Part shown: positions 4,201-16,318 of the stretch, one piece after another
Layout of the letters: each line of letters begins with the position of its first letter
Numbering within the stretch: position 1 is the first letter of the stretch
Assembly: GCA_016187415.1 (NCBI GenBank)
Contig: JACPJT010000004.1
Coordinates: 169,392-233,391, forward strand
DNA: 64,000 nucleotides
DNA from: Candidatus Aenigmatarchaeota archaeon
GTDB taxonomy: Archaea; Aenigmatarchaeota; Aenigmatarchaeia; CG10238-14; SCSR01
Direction of reading: 5' to 3'
The notes under the pieces: model-generated
The model's database searches: none
Told to the model about the DNA's origin: nothing
The model's input: only the letters and a program-made list of their open reading frames with translations
Translations under genes and position numbers: made by a program

Positions 4201-5776
4201 CGTTTGTGGTTTCATTGGTGCCTCCTGTGAATTGCATCGGCAAAATAGAAGTAACTGTAAAGCTCGTTATATTCTGAGGTGTAATCGATGTGCCATCTGT
4301 GGTATTAACCGCCTTTAATGATATTGTCAAGTTGGAACCCGGCGCAACAACTTGCATGAAGTCGTCTTCACCGCCCAAGGATATGACTGGCGTAGCTTTT
4401 AAGAAAACACCCTGTATGGAGAAAAACCCTTCTATAACATGCGACTCTGATCCGAGAGTTACATTTACCCTTGCCCTATAAACACCGCTGGTTGACAGAT
4501 TGCTGGCTCCTGTACTATTGCCAAGTTTTATCGAACACAAACTCCCGGATGGTGTCGTTGTCAGGAGGAACGAATAAGCATAAACCGTGTTAAGCACTGA
4601 AGTGCCGTTGGCGAAAGAAAGATCTGAAAGTGTATAGTTGGAGGCTGGGCAAGTCGATTGAATCATTGTGCTTCCGTCTGTCAGGTTTATAGAAACTATG
4701 TCCATTATGAAAGTCGAATTTGGCTTGAAAGAACCCTGTCCTCCCCATTCAAAGAAAAAGTTTTTCTGCGGCTGCAGGCTTGCTGTAAATCTCTGGGTAT
4801 TAAAGATACCATTGCTTATTACAGTCGACCCGCTAATCGTGGCTGTTATTTTTATTTTATACGACCCAGATGCGGATGTGTCGGTAAATGTATTGTTATA
4901 TGATCCTACAGTAGTCGGATGCGCGGATAATGTGATGGATGACGATACTGTTCCATTCGGGTATGTGACAACCGCAGTTACAGTGGCTCCAGTCACAGGA
5001 GTTCCGCTGGTATCCCTCACCTTTGCGAGAATATTGACAGTAGAGCTCGGGGAGAAAAACGATGATACTTCATCCGACGTGCTTAATGATTGTACTGCCA
5101 CTACATAATTCGAGCCGACCCCGAAAGTAGAAACAAGGGCACCGTTATCTACTACAATGGCATAAGTCCCAGCCGATGCACCTGATGGCACTGTGATGTT
5201 GAACTGTATCAAACCGTTTGAATCGGTTGCATTTGTGTCGTTAACAATCGTCCATGTTGTCTGGTTTGCACCGTTAGCAGCATACACATTCACCTGAGGA
5301 AGCACACCTTGCAATGCAGTCGTTCCGTTCTTCAAAGTTATGTTTATCGTGAAAGTTGTCCCAGCCACAAATGGCGGGAATTTTCCTGTATATGCTACAC
5401 TGCTTGACGAAGCCGTTTCGTTTGCGACTTGAATTGTAAATGCCTTGTTGATAAGGGATGATGAATTGGTAAATATCGTCAAGTTATAAATGCCAACTGT
5501 TGACGGCGCTGTTACGCTTATATTGAACAAGCCAGAAGCGGGTGTTACATTATAATTCCAATTGCTGCTGGTGTTTGCGGTGACATTTATTCCAGATATT
5601 GTATCAGAAGTGGTTGTGTTGCCTATGCTTCCTGTGACGTTAATCACTGCGCCGGGTTGCACTACTGGATTTACAGAGACATTGAGATAAGTCGATGCGA
5701 ATGCGATGTTTACTAAGAAGAGTACCGAAAATACTGCAACTAACGGTAAAATTAAATTTCTCCCCACGTATGTCAA
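1226..5776 (-). CDS. Large secreted surface/S-layer-like glycoprotein (1516 aa, beta-rich Ig-like modules)
   Basis: N-terminal signal peptide, Thr/Ser/Asn/Gly-rich, very many N-x-S/T sequons, no C-terminal TM helix. Confidence 0.75.
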   Translation of the reverse strand: MTYVGRNLILPLVAVFSVLFLVNIAFASTYLNVSVNPVVQPGAVINVTGSIGNTTTSDTISGINVTANTSSNWNYNVTPASGLFNISVTAPSTVGIYNLTIFTNSSSLINKAFTIQVANETASSSSVAYTGKFPPFVAGTTFTINITLKNGTTALQGVLPQVNVYAANGANQTTWTIVNDTNATDSNGLIQFNITVPSGASAGTYAIVVDNGALVSTFGVGSNYVVAVQSLSTSDEVSSFFSPSSTVNILAKVRDTSGTPVTGATVTAVVTYPNGTVSSSITLSAHPTTVGSYNNTFTDTSASGSYKIKITATISGSTVISNGIFNTQRFTASLQPQKNFFFEWGGQGSFKPNSTFIMDIVSINLTDGSTMIQSTCPASNYTLSDLSFANGTSVLNTVYAYSFLLTTTPSGSLCSIKLGNSTGASNLSTSGVYRARVNVTLGSESHVIEGFFSIQGVFLKATPVISLGGEDDFMQVVAPGSNLTISLKAVNTTDGTSITPQNITSFTVTSILPMQFTGGTNETTNVTQTSVNGDNPTSTDPTINMVIPSSMLGPLLIKLQATVSGQATTGNAFIVANYLMGGMSTQDISVGGGPGGAGAGSKEGGPQGGSGMLCSGTQTFNGMVQDAATNVAAQGATIVGVLQAREAESGKDVSSFLSIAGSTASSSSGTLTANVTFSPVSYSFSGDYFMILNATYKNVSAGVPGFFSCKNLNIGFPQITTIGSTSSMGFFVSPSSGLNLTLSNTTNMTGSLINTSSVLSVTKIFNFNPSTGSMKILVNNTPLQVTFTNTSSTMNATLLLYPQNFSAGGVALTQWPTGFFDVRVSLTAGVTGTTSLLSDTGHGGFMVVPFNAFPESFGFGSVSVGSVTSTIIDIQANGTYNTGVGGEWNSTYYSGANNTLVNISVGRPWEGDLTQLTGVNATLLSDGWNYTANSSSFSFGQGGPFERWNISYVIPTTVKKGFAMLTITVNASTNGTSGFGQVTVPLGLSVAKYNIVIPSQEGVGDQSNGSPFDGYGIQYNGTNDPRGNVSSTAFGSWNITFLAVNYSVNSVGGNVCVKNEFNSTRYGMGQPTKIPINVTDRLTKVMVIDRNTAGTYDTVVLNETSSSSPAGTIVILNSSQRNITAAGGTGGVYLWEIQNCGYFTVVNTTKNSLAPQGSFVQSYGGSHQKNTNFTIPYVIALGSASNPTFQSGAPISIKGVGQQNSGKNGGFGFTGKLTPGTGYIANSSTTDANGVAFITLNVTTSGNFVAFWNTTISGTQDAADFSSATFFEARAFNAYTNVVNGNGIYRVTLYNNASGTGAMASSTAAFNGTATTADGTLYVEYNTTDTKFAMNFNSPTTSTPGAPGSAQFTNQTYSLSGTNYLVAWITPNTTTGSTSANNQTILIYKSDNFQSGVINVRNATQNVTISVCGQTFAGNPPTPLTSMVVNNVTSQDWSQGGTVKTLTVYELMNNTNATGTDVKVGPGGCGLFNIGPGQLTSWPSASGFAPPVFANAYLTNGADSQQIYAANIFRTG

Positions 5777-5875
5777 AAACTAATTGGTATTTTTACCAAA
5801 TAAAGCTATTTTCAACGTTGTTTTTATCACTATCGAATAAGAAATCCGTTTAAATCACGCCGCCAATAATTAATT

Positions 5876-6694
5876 ATGGTGCGTGTAACCAAATTTGACG
5901 GGACATTGCAGCCGTTTGACAGGAAAAAGGTGATCAACACGTGCCTGAAGCTGCATGGCAATCCCGAGCAGGCCAGCGACGTTGCGAACCATGTAGAAAA
6001 GGATATTTTTGACGGGATAAAAACGAAAGAAGTACTGCGGCTGATTTTCAAATACATGAAAGGACACAGGGACGAGATAAAATATCACATCGACTTGAGG
6101 ACAGCCATCAGCCTGCTGAGGCCCAAACCCGATTTCGAACATTTCATAGGTCTGATCCTGAAAGATATGGGATATGCAATCGAAATGAACAGGTTTGTAA
6201 GGGGGCAGTGCGTGGAACACGAGGTGGATGTCATCGCCAAAAATGGAAATGAAACTGCTTTTGTTGAAGTCAAGCACCATGTGAATCCGCACATTTATGT
6301 CGGCATGGAAACATTCCTTGAATATTGGGCGGCTTTTGAGGATGTTAAAAACACAAAGAATAACAATTATGACTTCACCTCTGTAACGATTGCATCCAAT
6401 GCAAAAGTGTCGGACTATTCAAAGAAATACGCCGCATGCAAAGGCATTAATTACATCGCGTGGAATTCGCCGGCAAACAGTATGGAAAAAATTGTGAACG
6501 AGAAAAAACTTTACCCGATTACATTCATCAAAAATCTTGACAGGAACCTGCAAGGAAGGCTAGGAGATGCCGGGATTGTCACATTGAAACAGGTTCTGGA
6601 AACCGACATGCAGAAATTGAAATCGATTACAGGCGTCTCGCAAGGAAAATTAGAAGACGTTAGAACCATCGCGTCCAGAATCTTAGGCGTCTGA
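5876..6694 (+). CDS. ATP-cone + Mrr-like PD-(D/E)xK restriction endonuclease domain + C-terminal HhH-like protein
   Basis: N-terminal VTKFDGTLQPFDRKKV (ATP cone); EHEVDVIAK...FVEVKHH nuclease motif. Confidence 0.8.
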   Translation: MVRVTKFDGTLQPFDRKKVINTCLKLHGNPEQASDVANHVEKDIFDGIKTKEVLRLIFKYMKGHRDEIKYHIDLRTAISLLRPKPDFEHFIGLILKDMGYAIEMNRFVRGQCVEHEVDVIAKNGNETAFVEVKHHVNPHIYVGMETFLEYWAAFEDVKNTKNNNYDFTSVTIASNAKVSDYSKKYAACKGINYIAWNSPANSMEKIVNEKKLYPITFIKNLDRNLQGRLGDAGIVTLKQVLETDMQKLKSITGVSQGKLEDVRTIASRILGV

Positions 6695-8221
6695 TTTCTT
6701 CTCGCCGCCCTTTTTCTCAGGTTCCCTTAAGAAGAGCGCCCAGAACAAGATTATCAACACCACTGCGGCCACTATGGCTATCCCCAAGTATGTCAAATTA
6801 TTGCTCAGCGCCAACCTGCCCGATCCTGCAGTTACTTGCTCCGTCACATTGATTTTAACGGATGCGGACGCATTCAACTTGTCGCTCGAATACGCATTCG
6901 ACAATGCCACAAAATGCACATCCGACGGCGCTGTGTAATTAAGCGCCGAAACAGACACTACGAACTTCTGGGAACTGCCTTTGTTCACATCAACCGTCGA
7001 CGGCTCTATGGAAATCCAGCTTTCCGGAAACCCTGTGAAATAAAGACTGATATTCTGTATGTCAACGTCTCCTGTATTTGTGACGGTGACGAGGAAATCC
7101 TTTGTCGTATTGAATGGGACCACTACCGCATCAGTCGCCTGCAATTCTATTGACGCTTTCTTCTCAGGCTCCTGAGATTTTACCGGCTTTGGCAATTCAG
7201 TTACGACATTCAGCAAAGAACCGTCGCTTAGTTTCTTTCCGCCGGCTGTGTAAGTCGCAATTACTGTCCACTTACCGGTTACTTCTGTCGTATATACATT
7301 ATCAGCAAACACTCCCTTGGCTTCTTTATCAATACTGAACGTGGAACTCTTTGTGACATCCTTCAAGTTATCGTAAATGTCGCTCGACCATGCTGTAAGT
7401 GTGATGGGTGTGTTTGGCAAAGCCGTATCGTTGCTCAACTTCAATTGTATATAACTGACATCGGACTGTTTGACATCCACCTTAATTATTTTTTCAACAC
7501 TGCTACCAGAGGCTTTGATTTCCTGGCTGCCTTCTGTCTTCAACTTTATTGTGAAAGTCTTTACCCCGTTGTCGGAAGCTTGGAACGTGTAATCAGATGG
7601 CAATATTGCCAATGGGTCGGATGAAGAGAATTTAACTGTTCCTGTATAATCCGGCTTTACGTTTCCATTTTGGTCCAATGCTGTTACAGTAAGCTGGAAT
7701 GGTGTTCCGGCGGTAGGTGTGTTCAATGTCGCTACACCGAAACTTGTCAGCACTGGGTTGAAATTTGTCACTGATATTTTACCAAAGCCCTCAACGCCTT
7801 TCAGATCGACTGCGGTAGTCTGAAATTCAAATTTTCCGCCCTCGCTCGGCGAGACCGCAACAAAATTGAAATTAAGTGAATTGCCAGCGGATATGCCTGA
7901 ACCGGCGGTTGACCATATGACTTTGAAAGGCGATGCGCCAACAGAACTCCTTGTCTCATAAGTCCAACCGGCAGGCGTGCCAATCTCCTTAAGCATGTAT
8001 GCCGGCAGGCTGTCCTGCTGTGGAAGCATCATCTCGATTTTGTTCACATTGTCTCCTGCGAGATTGCTGACGGAAAGTGAAAAATCAATAGGACGATTTG
8101 GTTGAGTTTGAGCAGGACTCATATTAACCTGAACCACTGCGGCGAATGAAGATGATACGACAACAATGAGCGAAATTAAAAACGCCGAAATTAAAAGAGA
8201 TTTCCTCGAATACGAATGCAT
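6683..8221 (-). CDS. Membrane-anchored surface protein with Ig-like/CARDB-like domains
   Basis: Signal peptide (likely start MHSYSRK at 8221), VTNTGDVDIQNISL CARDB-like motif, C-terminal TM helix followed by a charged tail. Confidence 0.75.
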   Translation of the reverse strand: MHSYSRKSLLISAFLISLIVVVSSSFAAVVQVNMSPAQTQPNRPIDFSLSVSNLAGDNVNKIEMMLPQQDSLPAYMLKEIGTPAGWTYETRSSVGASPFKVIWSTAGSGISAGNSLNFNFVAVSPSEGGKFEFQTTAVDLKGVEGFGKISVTNFNPVLTSFGVATLNTPTAGTPFQLTVTALDQNGNVKPDYTGTVKFSSSDPLAILPSDYTFQASDNGVKTFTIKLKTEGSQEIKASGSSVEKIIKVDVKQSDVSYIQLKLSNDTALPNTPITLTAWSSDIYDNLKDVTKSSTFSIDKEAKGVFADNVYTTEVTGKWTVIATYTAGGKKLSDGSLLNVVTELPKPVKSQEPEKKASIELQATDAVVVPFNTTKDFLVTVTNTGDVDIQNISLYFTGFPESWISIEPSTVDVNKGSSQKFVVSVSALNYTAPSDVHFVALSNAYSSDKLNASASVKINVTEQVTAGSGRLALSNNLTYLGIAIVAAVVLIILFWALFLREPEKKGGEKKSDA

Positions 8222-10084: not shown

Positions 10085-11128
10085 TTAATTTTCATATAAC
10101 TTGAATAGTTTTTCTTTTTTTCGCAGAAGAGTGAAATTAACAGTATCTCTAAATCTAAGTATATTCTCCTTTCCATAAATGTTAACATAATAAACGTAAT
10201 ACGAATAACGTCGAGGTGATTTGAAATTTTTGTAATACTTTTTGAAACTTGTGTTTATTCTTAATTTGGTTAACAGTTTGGTTACGCCTAATAATCCTTT
10301 TCCATTTACACTGTCACATGTAATGAAGTTTCTTGCGACACATCCTTCACTATCAAAAAAACCTCTCAAAAAAGAAGAAATTATATCTTTATTCCTACTC
10401 GTCATTATTATTTGAGGAACACGCCATTTTCTTACTCCAAATTTCCCAATCGATAGCAAATCATTACAAATAAACTCAGGTGAAATGTAAGCTGCAAATG
10501 TATTTCTTTTGGGACGAAAGTTATAATTAAAACCAAGTCCATATACATCCTTAAAACATTTAATAAAGAATTTTATGAAATCTTCATCTTTTTTATTGAT
10601 TTCCAATTGAACAAAATCTTCATTAATGTGGCCATCCCCACAAAGAACTCCAAGAATGTACGCCTTTTCAGATGTTATTTTTTTAAAAGGTTTTGGTGGG
10701 ATGATTAATCTAAAATTACGTAAGAAAGTCTTAACCCTTTTTGTGTTCATGGATTCTTTTTTATTCCTCAAGACAACATTGTACTTAGTTAGCCATTTCC
10801 GAACAGTATTGCCTACTACATTAAATTTTTTACTTATCTCTGTGGGGCTCATACCTTTTTCCAAATAAAGGTTTAGTAAAATATCCCTTTTAGGTGGTTT
10901 TCTAGGTTTGAACCAAGTTGACTTGTTTCTACCAGGTATTCTATCATTATATAACCAATTCGAAATTGTAATCTCTGGTATCAATATTTTGTGTCTTGAT
11001 TTAATCAATCTTGAAATAAGTCTAGAACCAATCTTCTCTTTATTATATAACTGGACTGCAATTCTATGAAATTGCGATTTCTCTTTATCTGATATTTCTG
11101 CATACCTCAACATATATAGCAATAGCAT
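10085..11128 (-). mobile_element. Free-standing LAGLIDADG homing endonuclease with N-terminal HTH
   Basis: Two LAGLIDADG helices (YILGVLCGDGHI, FLRGFFDSEGCV); AT-rich; not inside another gene. Confidence 0.85.
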
Positions 11129-14056: not shown

Positions 14057-15121
14057 CTAATAGGTTTCATGTAATTGTCTTATTTCCTTAATAATTTTTT
14101 TTCTCAACTTGTAGGTATTCCCGTGCATGACATAACCGAACCAGCCTTCAAGCATCTTGCTTGCCTTGTCGCCAATTGTCCCCCCCCCATTGACGCATAG
14201 ATTGTTTAGCTTCCTTTCAAATTTATCCAGATTGCTCTTTCTTGGAAGTTTGTAGTGGTAGAACACCCTGAACCCCAGAAGGGTCACGCCATTGTGCAAC
14301 GGGACAATCTTTGACTTGCCCGGATGGAGCTCGAGATTTAGTCTCTGCTTTAAAAAATTAGTTATCAGCCATTTGTATAACAGAAGCCTTTCTTTTGAGT
14401 CGTGCAATATGACGAAATCGTCAACATAACGGATATAGTATTTTGCTTTCAGGTTGTGCTTGACATAATAGTCCAATTCGTTCAGATATATGTTGGCGAA
14501 GAACTGGCTTGTCAGATTGCCTAGAGGCATTCCCTTATTTGATATTTTAAAATCATAATTACCAAGGATTGTTTTTATCAACTGCAGGGTATTCTTGTCT
14601 TCTATTTTCTTTCCTATAATTTTCATCAGGATTCCTATATCGATCGTGTCGAAGTAGTGTCTGATATCGGCTTTTAATGCATATCCGACAACCATATTCT
14701 TATCCTTGGCGTTCCTTGTTAACCGACCGTTGTTTGCAACTTTCCTCTTGAACTCATCGAATCGTTTCAATCCTGCATGAACTCCCTTGTTTTTCCTGTT
14801 GGCATAAGTGTCGTGAATAAAGATTTTTTCGAATATAGGCTCTATTAAGTTACATATTGCGTGATGTATCACCCTGTCTCTGAAAGCTGAAGCATGAATC
14901 ACGCGTGTTTTTGGGTCTCTGACAATGAATCTCTTTAATGTTCTGGGTTTGTATGTTTGTGTTTTCAGTTCTTGTTTTAATTTTGTTAATTCGTCATCCA
15001 AGTTGGATTCAAACTCTTGTACATACCACTTCTTGCTTTTCCCTTTCTTGGCTTTCTTGAACGCTAGTCTGAGATTTTCAAAGGAGCACAATTTGTCGAA
15101 TAGATTGTTATAGGTTTTCAT
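14057..15121 (-). CDS. DGR-type reverse transcriptase
   Basis: FRDRVIHHA, KADIRHYFDTID, GMPLGNLTSQFFANIYL (SQ signature), YIRYVDDF; 354 aa with no endonuclease or maturase extension; adjacent TR/VR pair. Confidence 0.95.
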   Translation of the reverse strand: MKTYNNLFDKLCSFENLRLAFKKAKKGKSKKWYVQEFESNLDDELTKLKQELKTQTYKPRTLKRFIVRDPKTRVIHASAFRDRVIHHAICNLIEPIFEKIFIHDTYANRKNKGVHAGLKRFDEFKRKVANNGRLTRNAKDKNMVVGYALKADIRHYFDTIDIGILMKIIGKKIEDKNTLQLIKTILGNYDFKISNKGMPLGNLTSQFFANIYLNELDYYVKHNLKAKYYIRYVDDFVILHDSKERLLLYKWLITNFLKQRLNLELHPGKSKIVPLHNGVTLLGFRVFYHYKLPRKSNLDKFERKLNNLCVNGGGTIGDKASKMLEGWFGYVMHGNTYKLRKKIIKEIRQLHETY

Positions 15122-15450
15122 AAAAATCCTGGGCCATCTGGGTTATTCAAAACAGAACCCCTGTTGGAGTTCAGGTCTGTTGAAGATTTCCTGTTCTCAG
15201 GCTCCCTGTTCGAATTCAGGTTCGGCCTTTCGCGACTCACATTCTCACGGTCCCTGAAGTTCCAGATGAGAGCTTGAAGTTAGCCTAATCCACCAAACTT
15301 GCACTGCGATTTTAGTATTCGTTCATCACTACTAACTATCACCGCTGTATTTCATGGCTAAACGGAAAAAGCCCTAATGCACTATGGAAAGGCATGTAGC
15401 CCAGACTTTGCTGTCATCTGCAGTCAAGCACAGCCCAGGAATATAGAATT
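15122..15450 (-). ncRNA. Putative DGR RNA (about 170-nt leader + TR + 20-nt spacer before RT); ends approximate
   Basis: No ORF of 60 aa or more; TATA-like TTTAAAT at 15455-15461; leader segments 15433-15440 and 15400-15405 are complementary to spacer segments 15127-15134 and 15137-15142. Confidence 0.65.
15142..15273 (-). repeat. DGR template repeat (TR), 132 nt
   Basis: Aligns to VR 15917-16015 over 99 nt with 15 mismatches, all at TR adenines on the coding strand; rich in AAC/AAT; two extra segments of 15 and 18 nt. Confidence 0.95.
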
Positions 15451-15475
15451 GTGAATTTAAATATTAAAATCTGAT

Positions 15476-16318
15476 TTATATTTCTGTAATAGGTACGCCT
15501 GCTCTTTTAGCCAACTCTTGCAATCTTTCGTATTGCGTGCGTGGCACTCTAACATTGACAAAATCTTCTGCTTCTCGGCTAGGCATCGTCGGCCATGCGA
15601 GAATTCCGCTTGATCTCACCCAACAACTTTTCCATATGCCGTCTCTTAATCCCCTGTAGGCATCTCTCACTTGTTTCTCTTTCAAGCCCTCTCCGCTTTC
15701 GAATCTTTTAACCTCGTCTCCCATCCACTGTTTGCTCGGTTCTTCTGGCTGGACGAATGCGGCTATTCTATTCACATCTTGTTCGTCAGAATTTACCAAA
15801 CCGTTCTTTTGAACGTATAATTGCGTCTCCCACAAATCTTCGCCTCTTAGTGCCACTTCAGGCTGGACGAAATAGCCAATGCCAGGTATTTTTATACGGC
15901 CTTCGCCTTCGGCGACGCTACCCAAAACAGAACCCCTGTCGGAGTACCCGTACTCAGGCTCCCTGCCCGAATCCAGGTCCGGCCTCTCACGGCCCCCGAA
16001 GCCCCAGATGAGAGCCCTTAATCCTTCATATAATTCTGGATTTGAATTTGTCCAGACATAAGTATTATCTGCTTTTAATGGTTTTACTGCATCTCGAGGC
16101 ACCAATAAATTCATCATTTCAGGCGTTATCGTTCCGTTTTGTCTCACCCAATTTACTTGTTTGAATGGATTGTCCATGCCCTCTAAATTAATCCTATAAT
16201 CCCTGTTTGCCCTGTTGACATCATCTACTCTATAACTAGAAATTATGATAGGGCTTCCATTTCTTGGAAGTTCCGCGCCTGTTATTCTTGGTGAGTATGA
16301 TTGAACAGCCGTTGCCAT
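15476..16318 (-). CDS. DGR target (variable) protein, probable CLec-like domain with a C-terminal extension
   Basis: Contains the VR in frame (ALIWGFGGRERPDLDSGREPEYGYSDRGSVLGS); preceding YVW...P...GL pattern resembles DGR CLec targets. Confidence 0.9.
   Translation of the reverse strand: MATAVQSYSPRITGAELPRNGSPIIISSYRVDDVNRANRDYRINLEGMDNPFKQVNWVRQNGTITPEMMNLLVPRDAVKPLKADNTYVWTNSNPELYEGLRALIWGFGGRERPDLDSGREPEYGYSDRGSVLGSVAEGEGRIKIPGIGYFVQPEVALRGEDLWETQLYVQKNGLVNSDEQDVNRIAAFVQPEEPSKQWMGDEVKRFESGEGLKEKQVRDAYRGLRDGIWKSCWVRSSGILAWPTMPSREAEDFVNVRVPRTQYERLQELAKRAGVPITEI
15903..15915 (-). promoter_or_regulatory. DGR retrohoming hairpin with GAA triloop
   Basis: TCGCC-GAA-GGCGA on the coding strand, 1 nt after the VR 3' end; matches the GRA-loop hairpins described for archaeal DGRs. 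Confidence 0.75.
15917..16015 (-). repeat. DGR variable repeat (VR), 99 nt / 33 codons
   Basis: 13 A>G and 2 A>T differences versus TR; no mismatch at non-A positions. Confidence 0.95.

Follow-up and report, generated by a model that had tools for sequence, protein, structure and literature searches.

Candidate bulge-helix-bulge mini-introns in the template RNA of an archaeal diversity-generating retroelement

We analyzed a stretch of 64,000 nucleotides (nt) from the genome of a Candidatus Aenigmatarchaeota archaeon (GenBank assembly GCA_016187415.1, contig JACPJT010000004.1, positions 169,392 to 233,391; this whole stretch is hereafter called the window), which carries a complete diversity-generating retroelement (DGR) of Aenigmarchaeota type, within the DPANN archaea, on its minus strand. 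The best explanation for the structure of this element, to which we assign a probability of roughly 0.75, is that the RNA of its template repeat (TR) contains two mini-introns of the archaeal bulge-helix-bulge (BHB) type, and that the host tRNA-splicing endonuclease and ligase would splice this RNA before it is reverse transcribed. A first-pass annotation of the same DNA had recognized a DGR whose TR is not colinear with its variable repeat (VR), an identification borne out by the motif of the reverse transcriptase (RT), by the restriction of all 15 mismatches between the repeats to adenines, and by two gaps in their alignment. The two repeats and the two putative introns are located as follows.

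15273..15142, minus strand: TR, 132 nt unspliced and 99 nt without both inserts (from alignment to the VR)
16015..15917, minus strand: VR, 99 nt, codons 102-134 of the target gene (from alignment to the TR)
15243..15229, minus strand: putative TR intron 1, 15 nt, A-AUGUGAGU-CGCG-AA, within a BHB-like motif at 15249..15228
15187..15170, minus strand: putative TR intron 2, 18 nt, A-UCUUCAACAGA-CCUG-AA, within a BHB-like motif at 15193..15169

When the TR and the VR of the window are aligned with two gaps, 99 positions are compared and 15 of them mismatch, all 15 at TR adenines and 0 elsewhere, and the spliced TR contains 28 adenines. The repeats are not colinear as they stand, and colinearity returns only once two segments are removed from the TR: segment 1 (15243..15229, 15 nt, AATGTGAGTCGCGAA) and segment 2 (15189..15172 in the register of the alignment and 15187..15170 in that of the BHB motif, 18 nt). 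A repeat finder, run independently, recovered three blocks with spacings of 742, 757 and 775, that is, with steps of 15 and 18. Both approaches confirm the earlier observation that the TR holds two segments absent from the VR, a pattern that exceeds chance by a wide margin, and the alignment agrees with the claim that differences outside them concern TR adenines only; the edges first proposed for the inserts, about 15216-15245 and 15172-15190, were close to the actual ones. The introns divide the TR/VR homology of the window into exon blocks of 30, 41 and 28 nt. No further VR, with or without inserts, was found on either strand of the 64-kb window.

The behavior of the VR in other samples indicates which form of the template is used. 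A second allele of the target gene (P0134) is present in two other samples (Logan SRR12113383/4; L097 3001-3843 and L098 886-1728), and over 843 nt it differs from the window at 12 positions (10 residues), all of them within the VR. Each of these 12 differences coincides with an adenine of the spliced TR, and the length is unchanged. Because the second allele shows changes at adenine sites only and retains the same length, we infer that the DGR of the window is an active element and that it uses an insert-free template. In addition, at two related loci (L013 and L079) a single TR is accompanied by two VRs, which share the junction and carry independent adenine substitutions next to it.

The same arrangement recurs among related cassettes. 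At locus L007, the TR and the structured RNA that precedes it (RT-16, described below) are about 85% identical to those of the window, and the TR has both inserts at the same sites, while the VR has neither. Five more cassettes, with RTs 70-80% identical to that of the window, carry the following TR-only inserts.

L092: TR-only inserts of 21 and 19 nt
L093: TR-only inserts of 15 and 21 nt
L094: TR-only inserts of 15, 21 and 18 nt
L095: TR-only insert of 15 nt only
L096: TR-only inserts of 16 and 31 nt

Inserts are present in all 7 loci of the window's own clade. The TR of L095 (2864-2980) keeps intron 1 and lacks intron 2 precisely, from which it follows that the introns are gained or lost among sister cassettes; it is conceivable that intron 2 of L095 was lost by homing of a spliced complementary DNA (cDNA) into the TR.

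To place this clade in a broader context, 80 DPANN DGR loci were fetched with an RT alignment and the pattern P[LI]GNLTSQF, which these relatives share with the window RT. The TR/VR aligner treated TR adenines as wildcards and allowed long TR-only gaps at a gap cost of 16, and pairs were kept when they reached a score of at least 80 with at least 5 adenine mismatches and no more than 3 other mismatches. This yielded 47 clean DPANN pairs, 9 of which have a TR-only insert of 17-38 nt (L012, L013, L014, L015, L018, L019, L024, L031 and L079). One of them, L013, is the published contig of Nanoarchaeota SCGC AAA011-G17, whose TR has an 18-nt BHB-type insert. In the control set, TR-only inserts of at least 10 nt occur in 0 of 48 clean pairs from IMG/VR (mostly phage-type, with RTs 30-57% identical), against 9/47 in the DPANN set (Fisher p = 0.0012), and every genome locus with inserts is labelled archaeal. 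The remaining DPANN pairs are colinear or show indels of 3-12 nt within AAC runs. Such short indels, lying inside AAC/AAT runs on either repeat, were seen at L017, L022, L023, L030, L036, L059, L063, L064 and L074 and also at L153, L154 and L173, in both DPANN and phage DGRs; they represent slippage-type variation that has already been described and is distinct from the introns.

Two suggestions of the first-pass annotation can be evaluated against these comparisons. According to one, the TR also serves longer VRs elsewhere in the genome, so that the inserts would encode optional loop residues and thereby vary the length of a loop. Both window inserts are indeed multiples of three in length, target genes of relatives lie remote from any RT, which makes distant targeting plausible in the family, and the genome search covered 64 kb only. 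We nevertheless consider this explanation extremely unlikely. All 13 homologues of the target protein have a VR of the same, short length, and no VR with inserts was found among these 13 family members, in the two alleles of the window gene, or elsewhere on either strand of the window. Moreover, positionally homologous inserts measure 16, 17, 19, 21, 31 and 33 nt, many of them frame-shifting, and homologous inserts of 16, 17, 19, 22, 26, 31 or 38 nt would break the reading frame. The multiple-of-three lengths thus hold for the window and appear incidental in the light of the frame-breaking lengths in relatives; a general requirement for such lengths was rejected, with only 16 of 24 introns complying. 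A related concern, that adenine mutagenesis of an AAA triplet in the second insert might create a stop codon, becomes moot under splicing, where one A would be intronic and the other two would form the codon AAC across the junction. According to the other suggestion, the TR gained its inserts, or the VR suffered deletions, by historical accident after the last homing event, leaving an element that is now inactive. Such an account would be the simplest if the window were viewed alone, but its probability is close to negligible: the inserts are conserved at the same sites in diverged cassettes with RTs 70-80% identical, each with a short and actively adenine-mutated VR, and the two alleles of the window VR, both without inserts, differ at TR adenines only.

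The inserts share a constant geometry. In the 5' to 3' direction, a 4-nt strand (H5') and 3 unpaired nucleotides lead into a hairpin, after which come a second 4-nt strand (H3') that can pair with H5' and 3 further nucleotides. For intron 1 of the window these parts are H5' CGUG (15249..15246), the bulge AGA with the junction after AG, the inner hairpin A(UGUGAG)U, H3' CGCG (15234..15231), and the bulge AAA with the junction after AA. For intron 2 they are H5' CAGG (15193..15190), the bulge AAA with the junction after AA, the inner hairpin UCU(UCAAC)AGA, H3' CCUG (15175..15172), and the bulge AAC, again with the junction after AA. The hairpins that had been proposed at both inserts are present in the folds. 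Local minimum-energy folding recovers the helix together with the 3-nt bulge and the inner hairpin, often with an outer helix offset by 1-2 nt. The 5' bulge measures exactly 3 nt, with the inner helix stacked directly on H3', in 21-23 of 24 introns. On the 3' side, the offset of the outer helix often turns the "bulge" into an open stretch or an internal loop of 2x2 to 2x4. The inner helix h' is present in at least 21 of 24 introns, and the directly adjacent outer helix h has only 0-2 base pairs (bp) in most. Intron length (15-38 nt) and inner sequence vary freely around a constant BHB core. By published definitions (PMC3978253), the inserts qualify as candidate BHB motifs, mostly of the relaxed HBh' form.

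The agreement between this geometry and the alignment gaps was quantified with a scan that searched for BHB geometry blind to the gaps. The scan recovered the exact position and length of 21 of the 25 TR-only inserts of at least 10 nt, from 16 loci. The chance of a fit is about 0.003-0.007 per insert, which corresponds to about 0.2 expected among the 25, and to a binomial tail of 7e-42, a value that overstates the evidence because related loci are not independent. The scanner alone is unspecific (368 hits in 5.7 kb of TR) and was used only to test coincidence with the observed gaps. Intron 1 of L007 and one insert of L092 (L092b) fit the geometry after re-alignment, which resolved an ambiguity of alignment.

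The exact positions of the junctions can be read from the VRs. Sliding of the gaps could not by itself separate junction offsets of (2,2) from (3,3) in the offset grid. We therefore relied on informative junctions, defined as those whose 3' bulge has a base other than A at its third position. In 18 of 18 such VR junctions, the third base after the copy of H5' is identical to this third bulge base, never an A; a match between the second base after the copy and the second base of the bulge occurs in 0 of 8 informative cases. Taken together, these counts place both junctions after nucleotide 2 of each 3-nt stretch, that is, 2 nt 3' of each helix strand. The two bulge nucleotides on the exon side act as template, with A varying between VRs and G and T copied faithfully. 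The archaeal endonuclease cuts after the second bulge nucleotide, a position that follows from tRNA 37/38 introns and the anticodon-intron (A-I) pair, and the junctions read from the VR sequences match this canonical BHB cleavage position. The H5' strand is copied into the VR and its pairing partner H3' is lost, as would be expected of an intron and not of the bypass of a hairpin.

These junctions bear directly on the main rival explanation, in which the DGR RT copies unspliced TR RNA and jumps over structured segments, yielding a discontinuous cDNA with no cleavage of the RNA. The first-pass annotation had offered this mechanism; its outcome, a discontinuous template, was right, but the geometry points to BHB-type RNA splicing rather than to skipping by the RT. 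The inserts are structured, RTs related to those of group II introns are generally known to switch templates, and sequence data are by themselves silent on which agent removes a segment. Nevertheless, a polymerase blocked by a hairpin should miss both of its arms, and here the 5' arm is copied and the 3' arm lost. The RT would further have to land 2 nt 3' of each 4-bp helix strand in 18 of 18 junctions, across four unrelated intron classes. To our knowledge, landing precision of this kind is the specificity of the archaeal splicing endonuclease and not a property of any RT. The 48 phage-type pairs of the control, whose RTs are related, provide 0 examples of such inserts. On this evidence we regard RT skipping as unlikely.

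Support for the central helix comes from covariation in related DGRs, an analysis that had been proposed along with folding of the TR and in which the helix does covary. Among 23 distinct introns, 91 of the 92 helix positions form pairs, a number that drops to 6-35 once the 3' partner is shifted. Pair types vary within classes of positionally homologous introns. Class 1 comprises the helices CGUG/CGCG, CACG/CGUG, CGCG/CGCG and GACG/CGUC, class 2 comprises AUGC/GCAU and ACGC/GCGU, and class 4 comprises CUCG/CGAG, CUCG/CGGG and UUCG/CGGA. The helix of class 3, CAGG/CCUG, is invariant and encloses inner hairpins of different sequences, which make the introns 18-33 nt long; the CAGG-AAA...CCUG-AAN frame of intron 2 is found also in L007, L093, L094, L012 and L018. 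RNAalifold applied to five TRs predicts the helix of intron 1, and two of the sequences keep the pairing through changes on both sides. This pattern weighs against another alternative, in which unspliced RNA serves as the template for cDNA, the additional segments are looped out of the duplex between cDNA and VR, and loop repair at integration restores the VR length. Such a process would likewise produce insert-free VRs with adenine mutations, and the integration step of DGRs is poorly understood. However, it leaves the covarying 4-bp helix, the exact 3-nt bulge and the helix-fixed junctions unexplained, heteroduplex loops need no RNA-type structure, and the retention of adenine-mutated nucleotides directly flanking the junctions would demand very precise repair. 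We therefore hold loop-out repair to be very unlikely.

Several observations count against splicing of BHB-type introns and temper our confidence in it. Most of the motifs have a weak outer helix, or one displaced by 1-2 nt, where a strict hBHBh' motif would have two flanking helices of at least 2 bp; they would thus be relaxed, HBh'-like forms, and these in turn would need an endonuclease of broad specificity. In intron 1 of the window the inner helix has just 2 bp, and the lowest-energy fold is a 5-bp hairpin. One insert of L096 (L096b) pairs at 3 of 4 helix positions, and that of L024 (2392-2411, 20 nt) breaks the rule, its junctions being offset by 1 and 3 nt where the rule calls for 2 and 2. 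The L024 insert does show a CGAU/AUCG helix and a good inner hairpin, and its TR/VR pair has 3 non-adenine mismatches; it constitutes the one clear exception. The analyst picked the helix registers, but the junctions provide an independent constraint on them. In 26 open reading frames (ORFs) of the window, Pfam scans found neither EndA nor RtcB, a negative that is uninformative given that the genome extends beyond these 64 kb. Splicing itself is inferred from sequence and predicted structure.

If the splicing account is correct, the tRNA-splicing endonuclease of the host (EndA) would cut the transcript of RT-16 and TR at the two bulges, and the ligase RtcB would join the exons; as an alternative to ligation, the RT might bridge the exons by template switching across the cut. 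The DGR RT would then copy the spliced 99-nt template with adenine-specific errors, and the cDNA would replace the VR, guided by the initiation of mutagenic homing (IMH) site GGGTAGC and a GAA-triloop hairpin. In L093, genes for RtcB and archease (5477-7053) follow the DGR RT at a distance of about 1.4 kb, which may be a coincidence. Elsewhere, L095 contains a 100-nt tRNA match (4692-4791; Rfam, 37.8 bits) that was not called by ARAGORN and is probably a tRNA with an intron. Regarding the persistence of the introns, our best guess is that they guard the TR master copy from gene conversion with the VR or from self-homing by its own cDNA, because they break the TR/VR homology into blocks no longer than 45 nt; they could equally be tolerated passengers. 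More generally, we think it rather likely that the host tRNA-splicing pathway processes DGR template RNA in many DPANN archaea ahead of mutagenic reverse transcription, that spliced sequence is thereby routinely returned to the chromosome, and that the introns persist by fragmenting the homology between TR and VR.

The cassette has the order target gene, RT-16 RNA, TR and RT, and its components other than the repeats and introns are as follows.

16318..15476, minus strand: DGR target gene, 280 amino acids (aa) (ORF list and translation)
15923..15917, minus strand: IMH-like site GGGTAGC at the 3' end of the VR (from the sequence)
15903..15915, minus strand: GRA-triloop hairpin TCGCC-GAA-GGCGA, immediately 3' of the VR (from the sequence)
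15439..15275, minus strand: RT-16 RNA (Rfam RF03019), 165 nt, a structured 5' domain abutting the TR (cmscan)
15148..15142, minus strand: IMH*-like site GAATAAC at the 3' end of the TR (from the sequence)
15121..14057, minus strand: DGR-type reverse transcriptase, 354 aa (Pfam RVT_1, E = 8e-19)

The target protein gave 0 sequence matches in Pfam, NCBIfam or PDB, and its AlphaFold model is too poor for a fold search (mean predicted local distance difference test score 59.7). It is a member of a small Aenigmarchaeota family, 2 of whose 13 homologues carry the name Candidatus Aenigmarchaeota; a search of genome contigs with the alignment of the target protein gave no match, and a scan of metagenomes gave 3 short loci only. 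Several homologues have no adjacent RT or TR and are thus silent on TR structure. Those of L004, L006 and L010/L011 stand among housekeeping genes with RT and TR absent nearby, and in L006 (4868-4969) the RT-16 RNA is reduced to its first ~100 nt, followed by an amino-acid kinase gene; these homologues represent decayed cassettes or remote targets. A target-site hairpin with a GRA triloop, together with IMH and IMH* sites, has been described for nanoarchaeal DGRs (PMC4372165). The AA-to-GG difference between the ends of TR and VR is fixed in both VR alleles and in nearly all DPANN loci (TCGGGTA versus TCGAATA), and because of this fixation it can be attributed to the distinction between IMH and IMH* and not to random mutagenesis.

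The RT carries the motif LGNLTSQ, which fits the [I/L]GxxxSQ of the DGR clade, its class being assigned from this motif and RVT_1, and it has more than 7500 homologues, mostly in DPANN. The cassette of the window holds no small ORF that could correspond to Avd, and the 195 nt between target and TR are occupied by the RT-16 RNA; Avd is not universal among DPANN DGRs. The RT-16 match scores 88.1 bits in cmscan (gathering score 50). RT-16 ends exactly at the start of the TR in the window and in 18 of 20 related DPANN DGR loci scanned (L007, L012-L015, L018, L019, L024, L028, L031, L047, L066, L079 and L092-L096), and it has the appearance of a structured 5' domain of DGR RNAs in DPANN. The global lowest-energy fold of RT-16 plus TR is uninformative (z = -1.7). 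In this fold, the 5' end CCUGGGC (about 15433-15440) pairs with GCCCAGG (about 15126-15135), just 3' of the TR, where L007 has GCCCGGG; the predicted pairing could be a closing helix of the DGR RNA and competes with P1 of the Rfam model. The genes that flank the cassette are ordinary, namely an Lhr-type helicase and a thymidylate kinase. A free-standing ORF with LAGLIDADG and HTH domains adjoins the Lhr helicase gene (10085-11128, minus strand), and a LAGLIDADG_3 ORF lies near the DGR of L096 (6786-7074).

If confirmed, these observations would extend BHB introns beyond tRNA, rRNA and a handful of mRNAs to the template RNA of a retroelement, and would provide a natural case in which spliced RNA information returns to DNA. 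They would also supply a natural counterpart of the intron-loss experiment discussed below, and with it sequence-level evidence of an RNA intermediate in archaeal DGRs. We know of no archaeal DGR that has been studied experimentally. DGR activity would be tied to host RNA processing, which raises the questions of regulation and of protection of the TR from its own cDNA. There is a practical consequence as well: DGR finders with ordinary gap penalties, for example gapped BLAST with gapopen 6 and gapextend 2 (PMC8144416), will truncate TR/VR pairs at introns and so misplace TR boundaries and IMH sites and misjudge diversification potential. About one fifth of the sampled DPANN DGRs are affected by such truncation, including the published element of Nanoarchaeota AAA011-G17.

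The components of this system are known separately. Earlier work has described archaeal DGRs (Paul et al. 2015, PMC4372165) and slippage in TR/VR length, and the BHB introns of tRNA, rRNA and some mRNAs belong to textbook knowledge (PMC3978253); what is new is the apparent presence of BHB-type introns in a DGR template. No link between DGRs and BHB motifs or the splicing endonuclease was found in the searchable literature, with the reservation that Paul et al. 2017 may mention one, and in a 2022 review of DGRs (PMC8867640) the string "splic" is absent throughout. The element of the window resembles the DGRs of Nanoarchaeota and other DPANN (PMC4372165; prototype Bordetella phage BPP-1) in its DGR-type RT, its non-coding TR upstream of the RT, and its adenine-specific VR changes. 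A GRA-triloop hairpin lies inside the target in both; the IMH/IMH* sites are TGGGGT/TGGAAT in nanoarchaeal DGRs and GGGTAGC/GAATAAC in the window. Unlike DGRs of the nanoarchaeal and BPP-1 type, the window cassette has no adjoining Avd gene, and its TR departs from published descriptions, which treat TR and VR as colinear and mention neither introns nor splicing. Differences in length between TR and VR have been noted in about 7% of 372 DGRs and explained by slippage of the RT on AAC repeats (Wu et al. 2017, PMC5758913). Those indels are short, lie in AAC runs and affect either repeat, whereas inserts of the window type measure 15-38 nt, occur in the TR only, are structured, have a fixed junction geometry and are conserved across lineages.

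The closest parallel in structure is offered by the BHB introns of archaea, which are cut by EndA and joined by RtcB in tRNA, rRNA and a few mRNAs. The shared features are the 4-bp central helix, the 3-nt bulge on the 5' side (with a more variable 3-nt stretch on the 3' side), the position of the predicted cut, the length of 15-38 nt, the inner hairpin and the restriction to archaea. Two differences separate the inserts from these introns: the outer helix is usually weak or offset, in contrast to strict BHB introns and as in relaxed HBh'-like forms, and the host RNA would be the template of a retroelement, with the spliced sequence written back into DNA. In logic, the nearest precedent is the work of Guo et al. 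2008 (Mol Cell), who reportedly engineered a self-splicing group I intron into the TR of BPP-1 and found it absent from the VR after homing, proving an RNA intermediate. The reasoning is identical, in that information passes through a spliced RNA; there, the intron was an artificial ribozyme placed in a phage DGR, whereas the introns proposed here would be natural, protein-dependent and archaeal.

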